The notes below the pieces were generated by a model. It saw only the letters and a list, made by a program, of their open reading frames with translations. It was not told where the DNA came from and did not search any database. From a virus (taxonomy: Duplodnaviria; Caudoviricetes), in the IMG/VR virus record IMGVR_UViG_3300046710_000151, positions 12,584 through 76,583 of that record: DNA of 64,000 nt. One strand, written 5' to 3'. Positions 5,029-58,086 of this stretch are shown here, piece by piece. Each line of letters starts with the position of its first letter. Within the stretch, counting starts at the first letter, position 1. The translations under genes and the position numbers were made by a program.

Positions 5029-6758
5029 TTCATCTTGGCTACATGCCAGTCAACGGCGCGGCTTATCTGCCGTTCTCAACTAACGACGCCAACGGGGCAG
5101 CCATCACCTTCACCGGGACGGTTTCGAATTTCAAGGTCTACAAGAATGGCAGCGTCACAGAGCGAACCTCCACGGCTGGTATCACGCTCTCCAAGGACTT
5201 CGACGGGGCGACCGGATCCCACCTGATTACCTTGGATCTTACAGACAACACCGATGCCGGATTCTGGGCTGACGGGGCGGTCTACACCATTGCGGCCAAC
5301 GGGATCACGGTGGACGCGAAGACGGTCACGGCCTGGGTAGGGGCTTTCAGGATTGGGACGGCAGCGGCGAACACAACGCAGGTAAATGGTACGGCACAGA
5401 CGGCGCGGGACTTGGGCCTGAGCGTACTCCTCTCTTCTGGCACTGGCACCGGGCAACTGGACTTCACTGCGGGCGTGGTCAAGGCCAATTTGGCTCAGAT
5501 TCTCGGCTCGGTTATCACGGGTACGGCGGCGTTGCTCGTGGCCGCGTTCACGAAGTTCTTCAACGTTGCGGCCCCGACTGCTACCTGCCTTAGCCTGCCC
5601 GATGCGGTACCGGGTGCTAACGGTGGTCTGCCAACAACGAACGGGACGAAAAATAACCAAACGGTGGACCTGACAGCAGGTCAGAGCATCGCAGCTTCCA
5701 GCGTCCCCGCCGTCACGCTCGCTAACGGAGCGCATGGCGGGGCGGTGGCGACCATTACGTTGCAGGCCCCAATTGCAGCGACCGTACCGGACAGCCAAAA
5801 GGTGGATGTGCACACCATTAAGACCGAGGCGGTCACGTGTGCTGCGCCCGTCACGGTGCTTGCGAGCGTGGGGACAGCGGCGGTCAGCACGGCGCAGACC
5901 GGAGACGTGGAGACGTTGATTACCACAGTAGGAGTGGCGGGCGCTGGCTTGACGGCACTCGGCGACACGCGGCTGGCCAACCTAGACGCTACGGTCGGCA
6001 GTCGCTCCACTTATGCAGGAGGGGCTGTGGCATCAGTCACGGGCTCCGTTGGGTCGGTGGCGTCCTTCGGAACCCTGGTCGCCGATATCGCTACAGCGAT
6101 CTGGGCAGCGGGAGCCAGGACCTTGACGGCCTTCGGCTTCTCGGTTACGGCCAGTTCGGTTGCTGACAAGACAGGCTACTCGCTGACGACCGCACCTCCC
6201 ACAGCTTCGGACGTAGCGACGGCGGTATGGGGTGCGGGCACGCGTACGCTCTCCAGCTTTGGGACGCTGGTAGCAGACGTGGCTACGGCGGTGTGGGGGG
6301 CTGGGACACGGGTCCTGACAGCTTTTGAATTCACGGTGGCGGCGACTCCCGATGCCAACGTGGCGCTGATTAAGGCCAAGACCGATTTGATCCCAGCAGT
6401 TCCGGCAGCAGTGGGGTCTGCGATGACCTTGGATGCCGCCTACGACCCAGCCAAGAGCGCGGCTCCCACCGGCGCTGCCATGACGCTCACCGGTGCCTAT
6501 GACGCGGCGAAGACGGCAGCGCCCACCGTGGCGCAGATTTTTGCGGCGCTGATGGGGGCAGACACCAGCGCGATCACTACTCTGGCGGATGAGAGCCTGT
6601 TGACGGCGCTGCGGTTGCTCGGCGGAATGAAAAACTGGTCGGTCAAGATGGAGGCCGGGCACGTCAACCTGTACGCACCCGGTAGCGGCACCCCGGCGGT
6701 ATCTCGCGCGATAACGACGGATGTTGGAGCGTTGCCGATTACGGAGGTTACCGCGTGA
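5025..6758 (+). CDS. virion structural protein with Ala/Thr-rich internal repeats
   Basis: 577 aa; repeated VA(T/D)AVWGAG(T/A)RTL and AYD.AK.AAP units; ATGA coupling. Confidence 0.55.
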   Translation: MIHLGYMPVNGAAYLPFSTNDANGAAITFTGTVSNFKVYKNGSVTERTSTAGITLSKDFDGATGSHLITLDLTDNTDAGFWADGAVYTIAANGITVDAKTVTAWVGAFRIGTAAANTTQVNGTAQTARDLGLSVLLSSGTGTGQLDFTAGVVKANLAQILGSVITGTAALLVAAFTKFFNVAAPTATCLSLPDAVPGANGGLPTTNGTKNNQTVDLTAGQSIAASSVPAVTLANGAHGGAVATITLQAPIAATVPDSQKVDVHTIKTEAVTCAAPVTVLASVGTAAVSTAQTGDVETLITTVGVAGAGLTALGDTRLANLDATVGSRSTYAGGAVASVTGSVGSVASFGTLVADIATAIWAAGARTLTAFGFSVTASSVADKTGYSLTTAPPTASDVATAVWGAGTRTLSSFGTLVADVATAVWGAGTRVLTAFEFTVAATPDANVALIKAKTDLIPAVPAAVGSAMTLDAAYDPAKSAAPTGAAMTLTGAYDAAKTAAPTVAQIFAALMGADTSAITTLADESLLTALRLLGGMKNWSVKMEAGHVNLYAPGSGTPAVSRAITTDVGALPITEVTA

Positions 6759-11010: not shown

Positions 11011-14000
11011 ATGATCCAAACAACCCGCAGGTGGTTCTTGAAATCGACGAATCGCAGGTCGTCCAAGGGACCGCGAATGCGAACACTGCGCTCGACAACT
11101 ACGACAAGAAAACCGCCGCGTCTGTGGGGAGAGCTGGGAAGGCGTTCGAAGAACACGGCGGTCTGGTGGTCAGGACCTCCGACCGGACGCGGACCGGCCT
11201 GAAGCGTCTGATCGAGACGTTCGAGCAACAAAATGCCGCCTTCGGAAGATCGCCGGTAGAGCAACTTGGCGCGAAATACGATCTACTCACCAAGCGCCTG
11301 GCGGGCAATGTGGATATGCTCAACCGGGCGGCCAAGGCCCACACCGAGTTGAGGGACAAGATGCTGGCGGCACAGAAGGCCGAGTCGTCCATCTTGAGCC
11401 CCCAGGGTCCTGCCGGGATGTCAATACGCGCCGTACGCGACATCGCGGAAGGGCGGATCTCCTACGGCATCGCTACTGGCGCTGGGGCCGTTGCTGGAAT
11501 GAGCGGTGCCCTTGGCGTCGTCACCGGTCTTGGTATCGCACTGGGAGCCCTGACGATTGCCGGATATAAGGCTGCCGAATCTCTCGCAAGAACTGCGGTG
11601 GAAATCCGCGACGTGCAGGCGCGTACCGGTTTCACTGTGCCCGAGGTAAACCAGTTTAGCTTTGCGGCCAAAGCCGTAGGCCAAGACATCGGCGTCTTTG
11701 AGAAGGGAATGCGCGGTCTTTCTCAGGCGGCGGAAGATCAATCCTCCGCTGGTGACAAGGCGCGATCCTGGATGCTCAAGTTCGGCATCGACATCCGTGG
11801 CGTACGCGACGGTTCAGTCAGCACCGCTGAGGTCATCAAGCAACTCGCCACTGGCCTAAATGGTATCCCCAACGTCCTTGAGCGCAACAAGGCCGGGATG
11901 GACATCTTCAAGCGCGCGTGGCTGGAGATGGCCCCGGCGATCTTGCACGTGGCGGACAATATCGAGACGGCCAAACAGCAAGGATTTGGCCCGAGCGAAA
12001 GCGACGTGGCGCGATTCATGGAGCTGAATCGGCAGATCAATATATACCAGGGCCATTGGGCCGATCTGATGCGCGATTTCAAGGAAGGACTGGTAATTGA
12101 GGTAAAACTGATTGGCAGTGGTGCAAAGTTGCTGCTGGGAGGCATGCCGGGCGAAGCTGGAATCAGCGACGCGGCTTACGAGAAATTTCAACGCGACTCC
12201 GCTCTATCGAATGAGATCAAGGCCGCCAAACCTGTCCTCGGGAACTGGGGTACACACGTTCCGCCAGATGAAATCGGACGTCTGACAATGGAGCGCACTC
12301 ACGCTCTGGCAAGGCTCGATTCTGGTACGGCTTTCGACCAAGAAAACGCGACCGGGCAGCAGGCGGACGATCTTAAGTATGCGGCTAAACTCCAGAAACA
12401 AATCGAGGATCTTCGCAAAGGGACCGATGCGGCAAGTTTGGCGCGCAAGAAGGCGGAGCGAGATTCGGAAGATGACGCTATCCGCGCTTACGAACGCAAC
12501 CAAGGCCCGGAACGCAAACTTAAAGAAGCTGAGAAACGGTTGAGTGGGCTCCCGGAGATTCAACTCAATGTGAGCAGTCCACAGGACAGGATAGACCGTA
12601 TAAAGGCAGAGCATGATGTCGAAAGCGCCAAGGCGGCGGTCAAAGCGTTTGACGAGCAGAAAGCCATTCGAGAGAAACTTCGCAAGGCGAGAATCACGGC
12701 GGCCGAAGAGGACGCGAATCCGTTTGGTATGCTCCCCACTGAACGCCTGCGGATGGAGAATGCGAAGGAACCAGGGGCAACCCCGGCTTCAATCGCCGAG
12801 TTCCGCAAGATCACCCAGCCCCAACTCGACAGGGATCAGCAAAAACGCGACGATGCCGCCACCACATTGGCCCGTCAGGAAGAAATCTCCACCGCCCGCG
12901 AACTGCTGCATATCAAGCAGGCGGTGGGCGCCGAAACGCCGATAACCGATTTGGGTAAGAATGGCGTGACCGCGCTTGACGTGGAGAAGAGCATCAACGA
13001 GCAATACGACCGGCGCGTGAAGGACGCGGCGGAACTGCGCCAGCAGGAAATTGGATGGGCAACGGAGAAGAAACTGGACCTCCGGGATGAGGCAAGTTGG
13101 ATCGCGCGCAATCTGGCGATTCAGAAAGCCTGGAGTACGGAAGACATTCAGAACGCCAAGTCCCGCGCCGATCAGGAGAAGCAAATCTCCGATCTCCATG
13201 ATAAGGACCGGGACAAAACGCGCCAGTTCAATGAGTCGATGAGCAAGGTCCTGGCCGGCGACAAAGAGGCGGAGATCAAGCACGCTGCCGATCTGGCCGC
13301 GCGCACGGCGGAGTTGCGATTCAGGGGCGATAACCCTGCTGCCGGGATCATGGCGGACCTGGCCATCAGGAAGCAGGAAGCGGTGGCGCTAAATGCCGAG
13401 ACGGAACGGCAGCTTGCGCAGGACTACGCCGACAAGCTCATCAATTACGACCAACTGAGATTGGGAAACGCCAAGGCGCTGAAGGACCTTCACGACGCGG
13501 ACGGCAAGGCTCAAGAGGAAGCGCAGTATAAGCTGCTGGAAATGCAGCAAAAGCAACTCGACGCCATCAAGGGCACAACGCAAGGGCTGCTGCACGGCTT
13601 ATTCACCTCGCCGTCCACCTTTGGAAAACAACTCGGCGACACGCTCCGCGACGCGGCATTGAAGCCGATAGAAAGCGGGTTGAGCGAGATAATCGCCAAA
13701 CAGTTGCATCCGGTGATCTTCGGCTCGACTGGCACGGGAGGCATCGCCGGCGGGATCTCCGCCAGGCTGCACGGCCTCTTCGGCACCTCGGGCACGGGAG
13801 GCATCGCGGATGTCCAACTGACACCGCTGGGCTATGTGCCGGTGGTTGTCATGGGCACCGAAGGCGGCTTGAGCCTCGCTGGGGCCTTCAGTCCCGCCGT
13901 CAGCACGTTCAGCCGGTTGACCGCGGAACTCGCTGCAAAACGAACCACCGCGCTCCCAAGCGCAGGGCTGGGCATTCTTTCGCCTTTCCTCAGCCTTATC

Positions 14001-39310: not shown

Positions 39311-39607
39311 ATGGCCGCCCCTGAAAGCGCCGCGGTCCTGGCCGCGTTGAGTCGCGCCGCACGGTTGCGCGATGCCATGGAGCGGTCCGATCCGTTGGTG
39401 CGTGCGGTTGCGGTGGCTCGGGAAGCGCTACGGCATTGCGATCCACGAAGCGCGGCGTACAAGGCTGGCATGGTGGAACTGCTGCGCCGAAGGTTCGGCG
39501 GTTCGCGTGGCGATTGTCCATACGTGGCTGGGTCGGCAGAGTTTGATGCCTACTGCTCAGGTATCGAGTGCGGGTGGGGCGTGTGGCGGGAATGCGAATC
39601 TTTATGA
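39311..39607 (+). CDS. hypothetical protein
   Basis: CPY..GS..FDAY..G motif. Confidence 0.5.
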   Translation: MAAPESAAVLAALSRAARLRDAMERSDPLVRAVAVAREALRHCDPRSAAYKAGMVELLRRRFGGSRGDCPYVAGSAEFDAYCSGIECGWGVWRECESL

Positions 39608-40899
39608 AATCTGATTTAACGGTTTTGCCTGTTCCGGCTGAATCCTTCCTTTCATCCGCCCACTCGGGCGGTCGAGGCGATCTTCAGTCGCCGCATACAG
39701 CGTCGGGGGCAGGCGATGAGGGCGAGCATGTGCGACAGCGCGTGCTCGCCATTAAATTGAATTGTGATGACGACACCTATCGTCTGGTGAAAGAGTTAGG
39801 ATGGCAGGCGGCGCGCTACCGCAATCTTTTTCTGCGGGCACGCTGGGCCGAAGCGAAACAGCTTTGCGTCGATCCGGTGAAGGCGGTTCCGCACGATGTC
39901 ACTAAGCACATCCGCGCTACCGAAAAGATGGATCTCGGCTGGTGTGTTTCTAGCGCTTGCGAACGCGAGTCCCAGGTGGCATGGCAGTGTCACTGTCGGC
40001 GCATCCTAGCGGGTGGGCCGCTGCCTGAATCGAGCCCAAATGCGGCCCTCACGATTCGCGGCGACAAGCGCCGCATGGAATCGGGCGTACAACTGGTGGA
40101 GACGGAGCCGGATCGGTTTGTCGCGCGGTTGCGGGTATTAAGTGAGAGATTGGCGGATGGTGCTATGCGCGCGGAGGGCTGCTGGATTGAGGTTCCGGTG
40201 GCACTGGGGACGGCGAAGGATTGGCAGATCGATCTGATCCGCCGTATGAGCGCGGGCGAAGTTCCGATCCTGAAGGGTGCCCTTGTCATTAAGCCGTTTC
40301 GGCATCAGGTGATCTTGCAACTATGCTATCCAGTCACCATTGCCCTGCCGCGATTTGGCAACCGCTGCGCCACCTTGGGTCCGGTCGGCCAGGGCGGCAG
40401 ACTGTTTCTGCGCACAGAATGCGAGACGCGCGATTACTCGGGGCGGCTGCACGCGATTCTGGACCGCAAGGAACACTGGGGCGGTATCCGGCGGCGGGTC
40501 ATGGCGCAGATCGGACGGCACAAAGGTGCCTCCCGGACCAAGCGGGAAGTGCTGGCGCGGATGACTTGGGCCGACTGGCTGAAGACCGAATTGCATCAGT
40601 GGACTTGCGAGATTGCGAAGTGGCTGGACTCGCAAGGCATCGCCAAATTGACCGTGATGGGCTTGGGCAATGCGGATTGGTCAATCTTCGAATTTACACG
40701 AATGCTCACGTACAAGTGTGAAGCGCTGGGAATCACTTTGACCAGCGAAGCGGACTTAGCCGATGTGGGAACTGAACGGTCGGTGAAGCAGGAGATTCAG
40801 CGTGAGCGGCGCAAAACAACCAAACGGGCCGGGGCGCTGCGTACGCTTACGGCCTCAGTCAACGCGCCGTTGGCCAATGATACGACAGGAAAAGGATAA
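39568..40899 (+). CDS. Cas12f/TnpB-like protein with degenerate RuvC (probable start GTG 39730, about 389 aa)
   Basis: Colinear resemblance to Cas12f1 blocks recalled from memory (RRILAGG.PLP, FVARLRVLS, RRMSAGE, LHQW..EIAK.....GI..L, W...EF..ML.YKCE..GI); RuvC-I reads ATLGPV and RuvC-II reads TVMGL; no CxxC finger or RuvC-III. Confidence 0.75.
   Translation: MRVGRVAGMRIFMKSDLTVLPVPAESFLSSAHSGGRGDLQSPHTASGAGDEGEHVRQRVLAIKLNCDDDTYRLVKELGWQAARYRNLFLRARWAEAKQLCVDPVKAVPHDVTKHIRATEKMDLGWCVSSACERESQVAWQCHCRRILAGGPLPESSPNAALTIRGDKRRMESGVQLVETEPDRFVARLRVLSERLADGAMRAEGCWIEVPVALGTAKDWQIDLIRRMSAGEVPILKGALVIKPFRHQVILQLCYPVTIALPRFGNRCATLGPVGQGGRLFLRTECETRDYSGRLHAILDRKEHWGGIRRRVMAQIGRHKGASRTKREVLARMTWADWLKTELHQWTCEIAKWLDSQGIAKLTVMGLGNADWSIFEFTRMLTYKCEALGITLTSEADLADVGTERSVKQEIQRERRKTTKRAGALRTLTASVNAPLANDTTGKG
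39608..39729 (+). ncRNA. putative tracrRNA-like RNA
   Basis: Anti-repeat TCCTTCCTTTCATCC (39643-57), hairpin CCGCCC/GGGCGG, and hairpin GGCGA-TCTTCAG-TCGCC whose loop complements the repeat end CTGAAG. Confidence 0.5.
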
Positions 40900-40904
40900 A
40901 GAAT

Positions 40905-41228
40905 ATGGACAATCAAACGACTACTGCATTAAACGATCTGGCACCGCAAGCGGTCGCTGAGATCAAGAACTATTTTCAATCGACGGTGGACAGCGAGGAC
41001 AGCGCCTACAAACGTGCCGACCTCGGGCTCAAGGTCTTGGGGCGGGTCAACGGCAACGATTCCAACCGAATCAAAGTGCTGGCACTCCAATTCCAGGTGG
41101 CCCGCATGATGGGCGTCAAGGGAGATATGCTGCGTCCGCTGTTGGCGGAACTGAATCCGGCTCTTGCGACTGCCGGGGTAATTGCTGCTCCTCAACCCGT
41201 TGTTGGGGCTTTGTCTCCAGCGGCATAG
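40905..41228 (+). CDS. 107-aa helical accessory protein of the Cas12f-like locus
   Basis: 5 nt after the Cas12f-like stop; the array begins right after its stop. Confidence 0.65.
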   Translation: MDNQTTTALNDLAPQAVAEIKNYFQSTVDSEDSAYKRADLGLKVLGRVNGNDSNRIKVLALQFQVARMMGVKGDMLRPLLAELNPALATAGVIAAPQPVVGALSPAA

Positions 41229-41852
41229 GACTTTGTGGAAGGAACTGAAGGGAACCGACACCAACCCCGGACCCACGGCGCAGCGAGTAGGGACATGGAA
41301 GGAACTGAAGGTTGTCGAGCCCGTGTGCTGGTTTGGGCGCAGCATGTAGGGAATGTAGAAGGAACTGAAGGGTGCAAGGCCCGTCTGCCTTATGCCGCCT
41401 GGGCGCAGCAAGCACGGAATGCGGAAGGAACTGAAGGCAATAAGGCTTTCACACTGCGTCGGCGCAGCAGGGAATGCGGAAGGAACTGAAGGACTGATGA
41501 ACTCCGCGCCCATTCGGGGCACGCCGGGGGAAGGAACTGAAGGGACTCGACAGCGCTCTCTACCGGCGCAGGAAGTAGGGAATTCGGAAGGAACTGAAGG
41601 GCATCGGGTCCGAACAGCCCGCGCCAGTCGAACGGAATGCGGAAGGAACTGAGGGTTGCAAGGCGGCAACACGGTAGGTTGCGGAACCGCCTCGAATGTG
41701 GAAGGAACTGAAGGAAGCATAGATCCGGTTCCGAATCGACTGAACCAGCCGTAGCGCAGCGAGTTGGTGAATAGGAAGGAACTGAAGGCGATACTCTTCA
41801 TCCGCGGCGTTCTTGGCGCAGCGGGTTAGGTGAATAAGGAAGGAACTGAAGG
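41229..41852 (+). CRISPR. non-canonical CRISPR-like array, 11 repeats
   Basis: GGAAGGAACTGAAGG at 41237, 41297, 41357(A), 41423, 41478, 41529, 41586, 41641(GAGGG end), 41700, 41774, 41838; degenerate 5' part GGCGCAGC..GGAAT; unique ~19-40-nt spacers. Confidence 0.75.
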
Positions 41853-41896
41853 TGGCCGCCGTACAGTCCGAGAAGGTTGGCACCGTGCCGTGAAGT

Positions 41897-41997
41897 CAGA
41901 GCCACCGCAGCGCCGGGGTCTTCCCCGGCGACGGTTGCGGCGGCGGGAGAAGGAATCGTGTCTGACTGACGGCGCAGAAATCGGCAAGCCTTCTCAG
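41897..41997 (+). repeat. CAGAGCC...CCTTCTCAG hairpin element (intergenic copy)
   Basis: Same layout as copies at 52980, 55173, 56385 and 57954. Confidence 0.7.
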
Positions 41998-54133: not shown

Positions 54134-54250
54134 CAAGCCATTCCAGGCGATTGAGCGGGGCGAATCGTACTCCGCCGCCGAATCGAACCGTCGCCGGGGA
54201 AGACCCGGCGCTCGATTCGGCTCTGAGGGAATTAAAAGGGAATTATATAG

Positions 54251-54490: not shown

Positions 54491-55293
54491 ATGTAGCCAA
54501 GTATATAATTCCCTTCGATTACGCATGTGGAGGTGGCCTGATGTTCCTTTGTCGCCCGTGTTTTGAAAATCGGATGGAGGACGCGGATACCGCGAGTCCG
54601 TTCCTCTACGTGTCCCGCGGCAGGTGCGAGGACTGCGGCGAGGTTGCGAATTGTGCCGATCCTCCGTCTTCGTGGCTGCCCATACCAAGCCCGAAGTTTC
54701 AGATACGCCAGAAGCAGGCGAGTCCTGAGAAGGTGACGGCCCCGCACGCACTCCAGGGTGAGCCGCCCGCTCCCCCCGCCGCTTCAACCGTCGCCGGTAA
54801 GACCGGCGCGGAAGCGGCTCAACCGTTATATGTGACAACAGCGCACCAAACAATCGAGGCGGCGTTGGGGGAATTACCGCACCGTCCCGGATGCGCTTCT
54901 ATCGTTTCCTGCCCTTGCACTTGCAGACGAAAGGAATCCACCGCGCTCGAAGCAATTTGGGGCGCCCTCGAAGCCGCCAGTGGGCGCGCTGTATATGCCG
55001 AATTACTGGCCAAGGATGCCACATTCGACGCAGACCGGTTGCGCTGTGCCGAATTCAAAGCAAGGAAGCGCGCGGAGGCCTTCCGTGAGGCGTTGGAGCC
55101 GTTCGCGGACTGGCGCTCGATCAGCGACATGAGCCGCCGTATCGCGGCTTTACTGGCGGTGCACCCTGACACCAGAGCCAGCGCAGCGCCGTCTTCGGCG
55201 ACGGTTGCGCAGGCGGCGGAGAACGCGCAGCCCGGTTCTCAGAGTGAGAACCCGCAAGCCTTCAAAGGAGAACAACAATGTGGCAATGGCTGA
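54487..55293 (+). CDS. hypothetical Cys-rich protein
   Basis: CRPC and CEDC motifs; ends in a hairpin repeat. Confidence 0.5.
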   Translation: MNVAKYIIPFDYACGGGLMFLCRPCFENRMEDADTASPFLYVSRGRCEDCGEVANCADPPSSWLPIPSPKFQIRQKQASPEKVTAPHALQGEPPAPPAASTVAGKTGAEAAQPLYVTTAHQTIEAALGELPHRPGCASIVSCPCTCRRKESTALEAIWGALEAASGRAVYAELLAKDATFDADRLRCAEFKARKRAEAFREALEPFADWRSISDMSRRIAALLAVHPDTRASAAPSSATVAQAAENAQPGSQSENPQAFKGEQQCGNG

Positions 55294-55813: not shown

Positions 55814-56523
55814 GCGTCAAGATAATGAATGCTGAGCAATTGCTGGTAGATGTTACCAATCACAAACTCACGGTTCGGCTGGACAGTGGGGTGTACCGTC
55901 ATCTTGTTTTTCGCCAACCGAGCAACTCCTGGAATATGTGGTTTGAAATCATCACGTGGCCAGGCAGTTTGACTATTCACGGCGACATGGGGACGTGGTC
56001 ATTCTCCCGAGTGAATGACATGTTCACGTTTTTTCGTTCAGGCCAACTAAGGATCAACGCATCCTACTGGTGCGAAAAGATCAGTAGCGAGAGCCGTTTT
56101 GGAGGCCCATCCGAGAAATTCAACGCCGACACGTTCAAGGTAAATGTGCTTTCCAGCCTGGACGGGTACGGGTTAAGTGACCAGCAGAAAGCGGACATCG
56201 TAGAAGCTTTGGAGGAAGAAGTATTCGGCGAGGAAGATGAATCAGCCGCACGACGGGCTCTTTCGGATTTCAAGCACGAAGATTTCACTTTTTCCGACTC
56301 GTGGGAGATCGGCGGCAAGGGCTATGCGTACCACTATCTGTGGTGCCTACACGCGATTGTTTGGGGGATTCAGCAGTACGATGCCAGAGCCGATGCCAGC
56401 GCCGGGTCTCCGGCGACGAATGGCATCGGCGGCGGGGAGCAAGATGGCACGGACACGGCCACGGAGGCTCGGAACCTTCTCAGGCCAACTCCAGTTGATG
56501 ATTTAGCGGAGAGGGGTCGCTGA
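55810..56523 (+). CDS. conserved phage protein
   Basis: F.IITWPG.L.I.GDMG.W.FSR..DMF.FFR...IN..YW.EK and HYLWC..AI.WGI..YD. Confidence 0.75.
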   Translation: MSVKIMNAEQLLVDVTNHKLTVRLDSGVYRHLVFRQPSNSWNMWFEIITWPGSLTIHGDMGTWSFSRVNDMFTFFRSGQLRINASYWCEKISSESRFGGPSEKFNADTFKVNVLSSLDGYGLSDQQKADIVEALEEEVFGEEDESAARRALSDFKHEDFTFSDSWEIGGKGYAYHYLWCLHAIVWGIQQYDARADASAGSPATNGIGGGEQDGTDTATEARNLLRPTPVDDLAERGR

Positions 56524-57673: not shown

Positions 57674-58086
57674 GCCAACAAATGCCGCTGATTGATATTT
57701 CGGAGTATGAGGTCCAAGCCGAACCAGTACCGGTCCCAAAGCCGAAACCGGACATCATTTATCTGGTGGTGGCCTGGTCCGAATCCGGAGGTTACTGGAA
57801 AGTTCATCGCGATAGCATGCACGATCAGCATTGTGAATCGGATGATAGCAAGCGGTTCACTGAAGGAACGGCACGCGAGCGAGCTATTGCCGCGGCAAAG
57901 AAGCTAGCGGTGCAGTGGACGCATCGCGGCATTGTGCGCCTCCCGGTGGGCCCCAGAGCCGATGCCAGCGCCGGGCACCCGGCGACGGTTGGCATCGGCG
58001 GCGGGGAACAAGCGGCCTCGGACACGGCGACAGAGGCTCGGAACCTTCTCAGGCCAACTCCAAAGGAACATAATGCCGCTGACTGA
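57670..58086 (+). CDS. hypothetical protein ending in a hairpin repeat
   Basis: GTGA-coupled. Confidence 0.5.
   Translation: MSQQMPLIDISEYEVQAEPVPVPKPKPDIIYLVVAWSESGGYWKVHRDSMHDQHCESDDSKRFTEGTARERAIAAAKKLAVQWTHRGIVRLPVGPRADASAGHPATVGIGGGEQAASDTATEARNLLRPTPKEHNAAD

Follow-up and report, generated by a model that had tools for sequence, protein, structure and literature searches.

The window analysed here, a 64,000-nucleotide (nt) stretch of the tailed-phage record IMGVR_UViG_3300046710_000151 (positions 12,584 to 76,583), carries a locus that we read, with a probability of roughly 60%, as a phage-borne, type V-F-derived, nuclease-dead, RNA-guided DNA-binding system that acts by binding or silencing. 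Its parts are a scaffold RNA resembling a trans-activating CRISPR RNA (tracrRNA), a predicted dead Cas12f homologue, a small helical partner protein and an array of guide units (Table 1). An earlier note, made from the letters of the window alone, had described four contiguous same-strand parts here, and all four were found on the + strand at or near the coordinates that it gave. The system parts co-occur in about 20 independent metagenomic loci, with the partner detected in only some of them, and the possibility that the combination does not recur in other genomes was thus not borne out. The source record is 76,583 bp long, comes from a peat metagenome and has a CheckV completeness of 73%. 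Identical pieces of the locus, the array among them, are present in a second peat study, and the locus is therefore not an assembly artefact.

The effector is a predicted nuclease-dead Cas12f homologue

The longest possible frame of the effector gene is the open reading frame (ORF) 39568-40899, which has 443 codons and further ATGs at 39592 and 39604; the conserved core begins at the GTG given in Table 1. A search with the single sequence returned only a weak match to TnpB. A profile built from 61 family members matched AsCas12f (8j3r) at an E-value of 7e-21, further Cas12f proteins at 1e-15 to 1e-17 and the 'nuclease-deactivated Cas12f' of the sigma-E system (9n9c) at 1e-13. The AlphaFold2 model made from the family alignment had a mean predicted local distance difference test (pLDDT) score of 93.5. 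Its best Foldseek match was again AsCas12f (8e-16), followed by OsCas12f, SpCas12f1 and dCas12f, with CnCas12f1 also among the best. The matches listed at ranks 1-14 were exclusively Cas12f or dCas12f structures, and TnpB, Cas12m and Cas12k stood far lower in the ranking.

The alignment to AsCas12f also points to the loss of the active site. The RuvC-I Asp of AsCas12f (GIDLG) aligns with Thr215 of the window's effector (ATLGP) and is kept in a single one of the 61 members, while the RuvC-II Glu aligns with Met310 and is kept in six. The RuvC-III segment is missing, and what follows the last RuvC strand is a tail of 7-79 amino acids (aa) that forms a basic helix and contains a CxxC motif in none of the 61 members. 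Because the zinc finger and RuvC-III have been lost family-wide, these effectors should be unable to cut. Judged from sequence and model, the effector is a nuclease-dead Cas12f homologue, as the earlier note had supposed, and it lacks the RuvC Asp, the Glu and the entire TNB/RuvC-III C-terminus; the note's alternative, that the protein has no WED/REC/RuvC fold, does not agree with the Cas12f fold of the model.

A scaffold RNA overlaps the start of the effector gene

The region directly 5' of the effector core folds into a conserved RNA. Folding of ten loci with RNAalifold gave 38 base pairs, 19 of which show compensatory double changes, and 95.9% of the cells in these columns are paired, compared with 32-50% when the partners are slid by 1-3 columns. 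The observed covariation was reached in none of 500 shuffles, and the folding z-score was -5.0. The consensus consists of a closing stem P1, a stem P2, an unpaired anti-repeat, a hairpin P3 with a conserved loop and a terminal hairpin P4. The GTG start of the effector falls inside P4, and the scaffold overlaps the start of the gene. The ten-locus DNA alignment of the region has variable hairpin insertions. A covariance model built from these ten loci (R1) placed the element directly 5' of the effector gene in loci outside the seed, namely L012 (E-value 6.5e-13), L017/18 (1.7e-5), L007, L020, L013 and L021 (related loci are given here by L numbers). The tracr-like RNA that the earlier note had placed upstream of the effector was thus located in the window by the model; Rfam held no match to it.

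The translation of the upstream element looked conserved ('PAES..RG.L..PHTA') even with later called starts. A reading of the element as the N-terminus of the protein was ruled out by the stem covariation and by the conservation at the three codon positions, which is flat in the scaffold region (0.70/0.64/0.71), whereas the protein core has the pattern normal for coding sequence (0.68/0.75/0.41). In L011, scaffold and effector gene are separated by an array of eight units; together with the flat codon-position conservation, this indicates that the element evolves as RNA.

Two further observations concern the surroundings of the scaffold. An ATG or GTG stands about 4-25 nt 5' of it in most of the loci in which the effector frame is open across it, which are the window (39547-39752), L001-L005, L008, L010, L012, L013, L015, L017, L020 and L021. 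In the distant relative L016, where the array lies 5' of the gene and the covariance model missed the scaffold, a near-consensus promoter (TTGACA-17-TATTCT) precedes a diverged scaffold-like hairpin (GGCCA-TTCTCTG-TGGCC) at L016:780-990.

Scaffold and repeats change together

Cas12f guide RNAs use a two-part pairing between repeat and anti-repeat. Both putative anti-repeats of the scaffold are left unpaired in the consensus fold, and both change with the repeats of their own locus. For anti-repeat 1, the scaffold and repeat sequences are CCTCTC/GAGAGG, TCTCCTCG/CGAGGAGA, CCCTCTCA/TGAGAGGG, TCCTCTCCGAC/GTCGGAGAGGA and TCTTCTCCGGC/GCCGGAGAAGA in different loci. The loop that forms anti-repeat 2 changes with the end of the repeat, as in UCCUCA/CUGAGGG (L017, L013), UCUCAA/UUGAGA (L015), CUCCAA/UUGGAG (L021) and CCUGCA/UGCAGG (L020), and its stem shows GC, CG, AU and UA pair types across the loci. 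In L017, for example, TCCTCTCCGAC and the loop CCTCAGT accompany the repeat GTCGGAGAGGAACTGAGGG, and in L021 TCCCCTCCG and CTCCAAT accompany the repeat GCCGGAGGGGAATTGGAGC.

Perfect complementarity summed over the two segments averaged 14.5 nt for cognate scaffold-repeat combinations and 10.0 nt for non-cognate ones, and for 12 of the 15 scaffolds the best-matching repeat was the cognate one. The scaffold of L020 predicted a repeat ending in GCCGGAGAAGA..TGCAGG, and exactly this was later located at the end of the contig. From these comparisons, the scaffold holds two unpaired stretches that are complementary to the last ~15 nt of the repeats and co-evolve with them. The dual-RNA arrangement put forward in the earlier note, a tracrRNA plus a repeat with the guide at its 3' side, is borne out by this covariation.

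Guide arrays range from regular to minimal

Each unit of the window's array comprises a degenerate 5' repeat half (GGCGCAGC..GTAGGGAATG.), a 15-nt core (GGAAGGAACTGAAGG) and the guide. Allowing up to two mismatches, the core was found 11 times on the + strand (two copies have one mismatch), compared with a chance expectation of 0.13, and none of 100 shuffles reached 11. The array was described earlier as multi-spacer with about 10 guides; the former description stands and the count becomes 11. Neither a second array nor a further copy of GGAAGGAACTGAAGG occurs elsewhere in the 76,583-bp record. In most units a drifted GGCGCAGC..GTAGGGAATG. segment is kept 5' of the core as the remnant of a repeat of ~36 nt, and the same core ends the repeats of the homologous loci.

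A same-strand array is present in every related locus that has enough flanking DNA, and a single locus can have up to ~32 guide units. L001, L013, L015, L017, L019 and L021 have regular CRISPR arrays, in which repeats of 36 nt alternate with spacers of ~36 nt at a period of ~72 nt. The arrays of the window and of L002 are degenerate, and that of L003 is partly so. In seven loci (L004, L005, L006, L008, L010, L011 and L012) mini-arrays retain just the last 11-16 nt of the repeat, and what is conserved of the repeat coincides exactly with the stretch that is complementary to the scaffold. The shortest mini-array units, of 27-33 nt, leave 14-20 nt of variable sequence, and this minimum agrees with the 14-16-nt guides of dCas12f (PMC13472631). 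The position of the array also varies: it lies 5' of the gene, between the gene and the partner or after the partner. The irregularity of the arrays argues against ordinary insertion by Cas1-Cas2. The ~200 spacers are all different, apart from one similar pair within a single array, and none is shared between loci.

Some features of the arrays stand apart. In L006, ~28 units flank the gene on both sides (L006:3593-3960 and 5183-5700); their repeat (GGAACTGAGGG) is 11 nt long, and the period falls to as little as 26-28 nt. Neither scaffold nor partner was detected in this locus, which, to function, would need a scaffold that has diverged or that another site encodes. Arrays also create spurious minus-strand ORFs, such as window 40929-41801 (-) of 290 aa and L003:6416-7123 (-), and the NCBI record of L003 has a 235-aa gene called across the array. 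The array transcript may end at the hairpin directly after the last guide (Table 1), which is one of a family with the motif GCGCCGG-loop-CCGGCG, found five times in the window compared with 0.34 expected, at 41910-41930, 56399-56415 and 57968-57984 (+) and at 54192-54211 and 54792-54809 (-).

Table 1. Positions of the system parts and associated elements in the window.
Feature	Position	Strand	Basis or remark
Tracr-like scaffold RNA, ~130 nt	39623..39752	+	Covariance model, RNAalifold
Anti-repeat 1 (TCCTTCC)	39643..39649	+	Complementary to GGAAGGA of the repeat core
Anti-repeat 2 (TCTTCAGT), loop of hairpin GGCGA/TCGCC	39681..39688	+	Complementary to the repeat 3' end ACTGAAG(G)
Predicted nuclease-dead, C-terminally truncated Cas12f homologue, 389-aa core	39730..40899	+	GTG start at 39730
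Helical partner, 107 aa	40905..41228	+	ORF starts five bases after the effector; stop codon in the first repeat
Guide array, 11 units	41216..41875	+	Cores at 41237-41852; period 51-74 nt
GC-rich hairpin directly after the last guide	41897..41960	+	Motif count, fold of 41853-41995

The partner accompanies the closer relatives

A partner homologue with 41-66% identity adjoins the effector in L001-5, L007, L010-12 and L019, and a weak one was seen in L020. No partner was detected in L006, L008, L013, L015-18 and L021, some of which have room for one. The 107-aa cofactor proposed earlier is therefore real, conserved and adjacent to the effector; as a dedicated component it holds for the closer relatives only, and since it is absent or undetected in the distant loci, it counts as an accessory found in one subclade and not as part of the core. 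In the AlphaFold2 model (pLDDT 67), four main helices form a bundle and the tail is disordered. Searches of Pfam, NCBIfam, PHROG, PADLOC, the PDB and the Atlas gave no match of note, and Foldseek returned nothing at E<=0.001, with only a generic four-helix (Hpt-like) resemblance in the Atlas. The partner may stabilise binding, help guide maturation or couple binding to an output.

L004 (IMG/VR contig 3300047160_021434) has an insertion at this place. A 120-aa helix-turn-helix (HTH) protein (L004:5202-5564; Pfam HTH_23, E-value 3e-7) is encoded between the effector and the partner, and two repeat-guide units lie between the HTH gene and the partner gene. The insertion recalls the HTH genes linked to dCas12f-sigmaE loci.

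The family is found on mobile elements

Tape measure, baseplate/virion, primase and ParB-like genes are present in the window, which belongs to the genome of a tailed phage. Close relatives of the effector (25, with 33-60% identity) are all metagenomic, and three of the relatives lie on IMG/VR viral contigs; an exhaustive search extended the family to 97 clusters at 50% identity. Neighbours of the relatives include RecT, ERF, PDDEXK or YqaJ recombination genes, and one relative sits 3' of a TrbL/VirB8/CagX/TrbI operon for type IV secretion. By gene content, mobile elements thus carry the family: phage genes surround it in the window, and recombination neighbours and a type IV secretion operon accompany relatives. 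Genes for Cas1, Cas2 and Cas4, whose absence from the window had been noted earlier, have no Pfam match anywhere in the 76.6-kb record at its 73% completeness. These adaptation genes are also missing from many V-F loci.

An effector homologue was found neither in GenBank phages nor in PLSDB nor, by the patterns used, in GTDB representative genomes, and a scan of the GTDB genomes with a pattern for the array core returned coding tandem repeats only. The host search with the phage primase found no close relatives in GenBank phages or GTDB genomes. For a peat phage, an acidobacterial host is plausible.

Proposed mode of action and its alternatives

In the system that we favour, the scaffold RNA would pair with each repeat-guide unit, and the effector would load the scaffold together with the repeat-guide RNA, probably as a dimer like Cas12f. 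The complex would then bind double-stranded DNA complementary to the first ~16-20 nt of the guide, beside an adjacent motif. Since the effector is predicted to be unable to cut, the bound complex would act as a roadblock to transcription or replication, a natural form of CRISPR interference (CRISPRi) as with Cas12m. Targets could be rival phages, plasmids, satellites or host defence genes. Because the guides differ between relatives and none matches its carrier, the targets are most likely variable foreign or host sequences rather than a fixed regulon, and by analogy the outcome would be the silencing of host genes or rival elements.

The same parts could instead form a counter-defence decoy, in which a dead Cas12f and its scaffold soak up the CRISPR RNAs of a host V-F system or the phage repeats compete for the host effector. 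A phage dead Cas9 with a phage tracrRNA and solitary phage repeat units have been proposed to act in this way (PMC11656645), and a decoy would fit the fact that a target of the array was never found. We nevertheless regard it as unlikely: the arrays contain ~200 different guide-length spacers, the variable part of the mini-arrays is kept at 14-20 nt as if the guides, and not just the repeats, were under selection, the scaffold changes in step with the repeats of its own element, and a host V-F system is not known here.

An activator or recruiter, in which the partner connects the complex on the DNA with RNA polymerase or the replication/recombination machinery and so switches genes on, is about equally improbable. 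It would resemble dCas12f-sigmaE, and the nearest dead relatives of known function do recruit a sigma factor (PMC13472631); the conserved, dedicated partner in the operon and the location of the locus among recombination and replication genes would also suit it. Yet the partner has no recognisable sigma, HTH or other domain and is absent or undetected in distant loci that retain scaffold and arrays, and activators have conserved targets whereas the spacers here are all different.

The searches for targets bear on the remaining readings. Guides that time the phage's own expression or control lysogeny would suit a locus in the early/regulatory region, and TldR in prophages has a fixed gene under its control (10.1101/2023.11.30.569447). 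The window's 11 guides, however, match the 76.6-kb record no better than shuffled controls do, and the same holds for the other loci within the flanks that are available; against all related loci analysed plus the record, 201 guides gave 32 matches with two mismatches, compared with 21.6 for shuffled guides, and no exact match. Since the record is 73% complete, a target could lie in its missing part. Self-regulation is on this evidence somewhat less likely still than the two readings above. Least likely of all is RNA targeting, in which the complex binds guide-complementary mRNAs and blocks their translation or stability: Cas12g is a precedent for RNA targeting by a type V effector, and two spacers from the relatives L001 and L005 run antisense to a ribosome-binding site and ATG, but the 193 spacers examined show no orientation bias (2 versus 2 under strict matching, 12 sense versus 6 antisense under loose matching) and no bias to ribosome-binding sites or start codons, and the closest relatives all bind double-stranded DNA.

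Searches beyond the loci themselves covered viromes, plasmids and genomes. Six spacer 20-mers compared with IMG/VR matched nothing save an L005 spacer on its own contig. In blastn comparisons of the whole arrays of the window and of L017 with PLSDB and GenBank phages, and of the L003 array with PLSDB, the sole match was a chance one at E 0.6. The window array was compared with 401 Acidobacteriota genomes (after a first 4), of which 13 matched at E<=0.01 with ~4 expected. We judged these matches to be due to chance, as the best ones inspected lay on repeat-derived sequence or the core, had their start away from the repeat-proximal end of a guide, and fell in unrelated genes. The best match found was a 23-nt identity between window 41613-41635 and a Bryobacterales metagenome-assembled genome (G002:C3:1302341-1302363); it takes in the repeat remnant and the distal part of spacer 7 but leaves out the seed next to the repeat, and was likewise judged to be chance. 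The protospacers in acidobacterial genomes and viromes that the earlier note had envisaged thus did not appear in convincing form in the phage, the related loci, IMG/VR, GenBank phages, PLSDB or the 401 genomes.

Several observations speak against the silencing system as drawn above. No search returned a convincing target for the DNA binding or the silencing. The effector frame is open through the whole scaffold in 14 of the 15 loci, with length differences that are multiples of three, and a pure picture of a separate tracrRNA does not account for this; ribosomes may read through the scaffold, or the mRNA leader may serve as message and scaffold alike. A promoter and terminator scan of the + strand gave nothing above background, so that no promoter was seen for scaffold or array, and none of the public runs searched is listed as holding RNA of the phage. 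The scaffold-repeat pairing in the window is short (7 + 7 nt). Finally, the partner could change the output entirely.

A broader proposal is tentative, and we think it more probably wrong than right. The family might represent a route by which the CRISPR effector of a mobile element sheds both its nuclease and its array format. Handles of 11-16 nt and guides of ~16 nt would be renewed without Cas1-Cas2, the scaffold would be carved from the translated 5' end of the effector mRNA, and the partner would give an active output by blocking or recruiting polymerase. The result would be a compact multiplexed silencer in phage-phage or phage-host conflict.

Comparison with known systems

A literature search, with most subscription journals outside its reach, found no description of a phage/plasmid family of this kind, of the partner, of mini-repeat arrays or of an ORF-embedded scaffold. 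Judged by sequence, the system descends from Cas12f, and by analogy it may work like Cas12m, TldR or VIPR. Cas12f (type V-F, in particular AsCas12f-like Cas12f1) is the best match in both sequence and fold. Common to both are the miniature size of the effector, a tracrRNA whose anti-repeat pairs with the repeat in two parts, and a guide that follows the repeat on its 3' side. In contrast to Cas12f, the family lacks the RuvC Asp/Glu, the TNB zinc finger (CxxC...CxxC) and RuvC-III, has its scaffold within the 5' part of the open effector frame and has arrays that are degenerate or built on 11-16-nt repeats; it also adds a small partner gene and travels on phage/plasmid carriers without an adaptation module. 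A Cas12f lineage has been proposed in which RuvC-III was lost and the array was then minimised to half a repeat (Altae-Tran et al., PMC10691335).

The proteins of the dCas12f-sigmaE system likewise derive from Cas12f and keep its fold; they are dead, truncated at the C-terminus and use 14-16-nt guides (PMC13472631). Their structures (9n9c, 9n9m) match the effector with a profile E-value of 1e-13 and a Foldseek E-value of ~1e-11, at an identity of only ~13%. They differ in having an adjacent extracytoplasmic function (ECF) sigma factor (rpoE) with a C-terminal extension, whereas neither the partner nor the neighbours of the window's effector have a sigma-domain match. They also use a single chimeric guide RNA without a tracrRNA and sit on a Bacteroidota chromosome, in contrast to the separate scaffold, multi-guide array and phage carrier described here. 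An array-linked dCas12f cluster in a Chitinophagaceae metagenome-assembled genome, which Hoffmann et al. (Nature 2026, PMC13472631) mention without characterisation as distinct from these systems, may belong to the family.

Cas12m is RuvC-inactive, enriched on plasmids and prophages, and silences by binding without cutting in conflicts between mobile elements (PMC11656645, PMC11013384). Loss of RuvC activity in a type V effector and carriage on mobile elements are thus common to Cas12m and the family. Cas12m nevertheless belongs to another branch, as Cas12m2 structures match the effector only at E ~1e-7 and no profile match was obtained at E<=10; it is ~600 aa long, lacks a tracrRNA and has regular arrays, whereas a tracr-like RNA is present here. 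The TldR proteins are dead RNA-guided repressors of the TnpB family with ~16-nt guides, some of them in prophages. They derive directly from TnpB, their single omega-RNA-like guide lies at the gene's 3' end, and their target is conserved, in contrast to the Cas12f descent, the scaffold 5' of the gene and the many variable guides of this family. VIPR offers a further parallel, in which operons of enterobacterial phages direct an RNA-guided silencer, together with accessory gene(s) and an array of guides, against competing elements (10.64898/2026.10.15.759431). Its arrays consist of GGYNN pentamers with a conserved tail and a non-contiguous code, whereas the window has 51-74-nt units with a 15-nt core, and an effector without a homologue in GenBank phages.

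The series from arrays with 36-nt repeats and 36-nt spacers to arrays of mini-repeats illustrates the decay or streamlining of an array once only the scaffold-pairing handle and the guide seed are under selection, and it raises the question of how guides are gained. If the proposed function is correct, the locus would be a natural multiplexed CRISPRi device made of a 389-aa protein, a ~130-nt scaffold and ~30 nt per guide, carried by phages and plasmids of soil bacteria, and its compact size may interest tool builders. The dead RNA-guided effectors with which mobile elements act on one another or on their hosts, such as Cas12m, type IV, TldR and VIPR, would then gain a branch derived from Cas12f.

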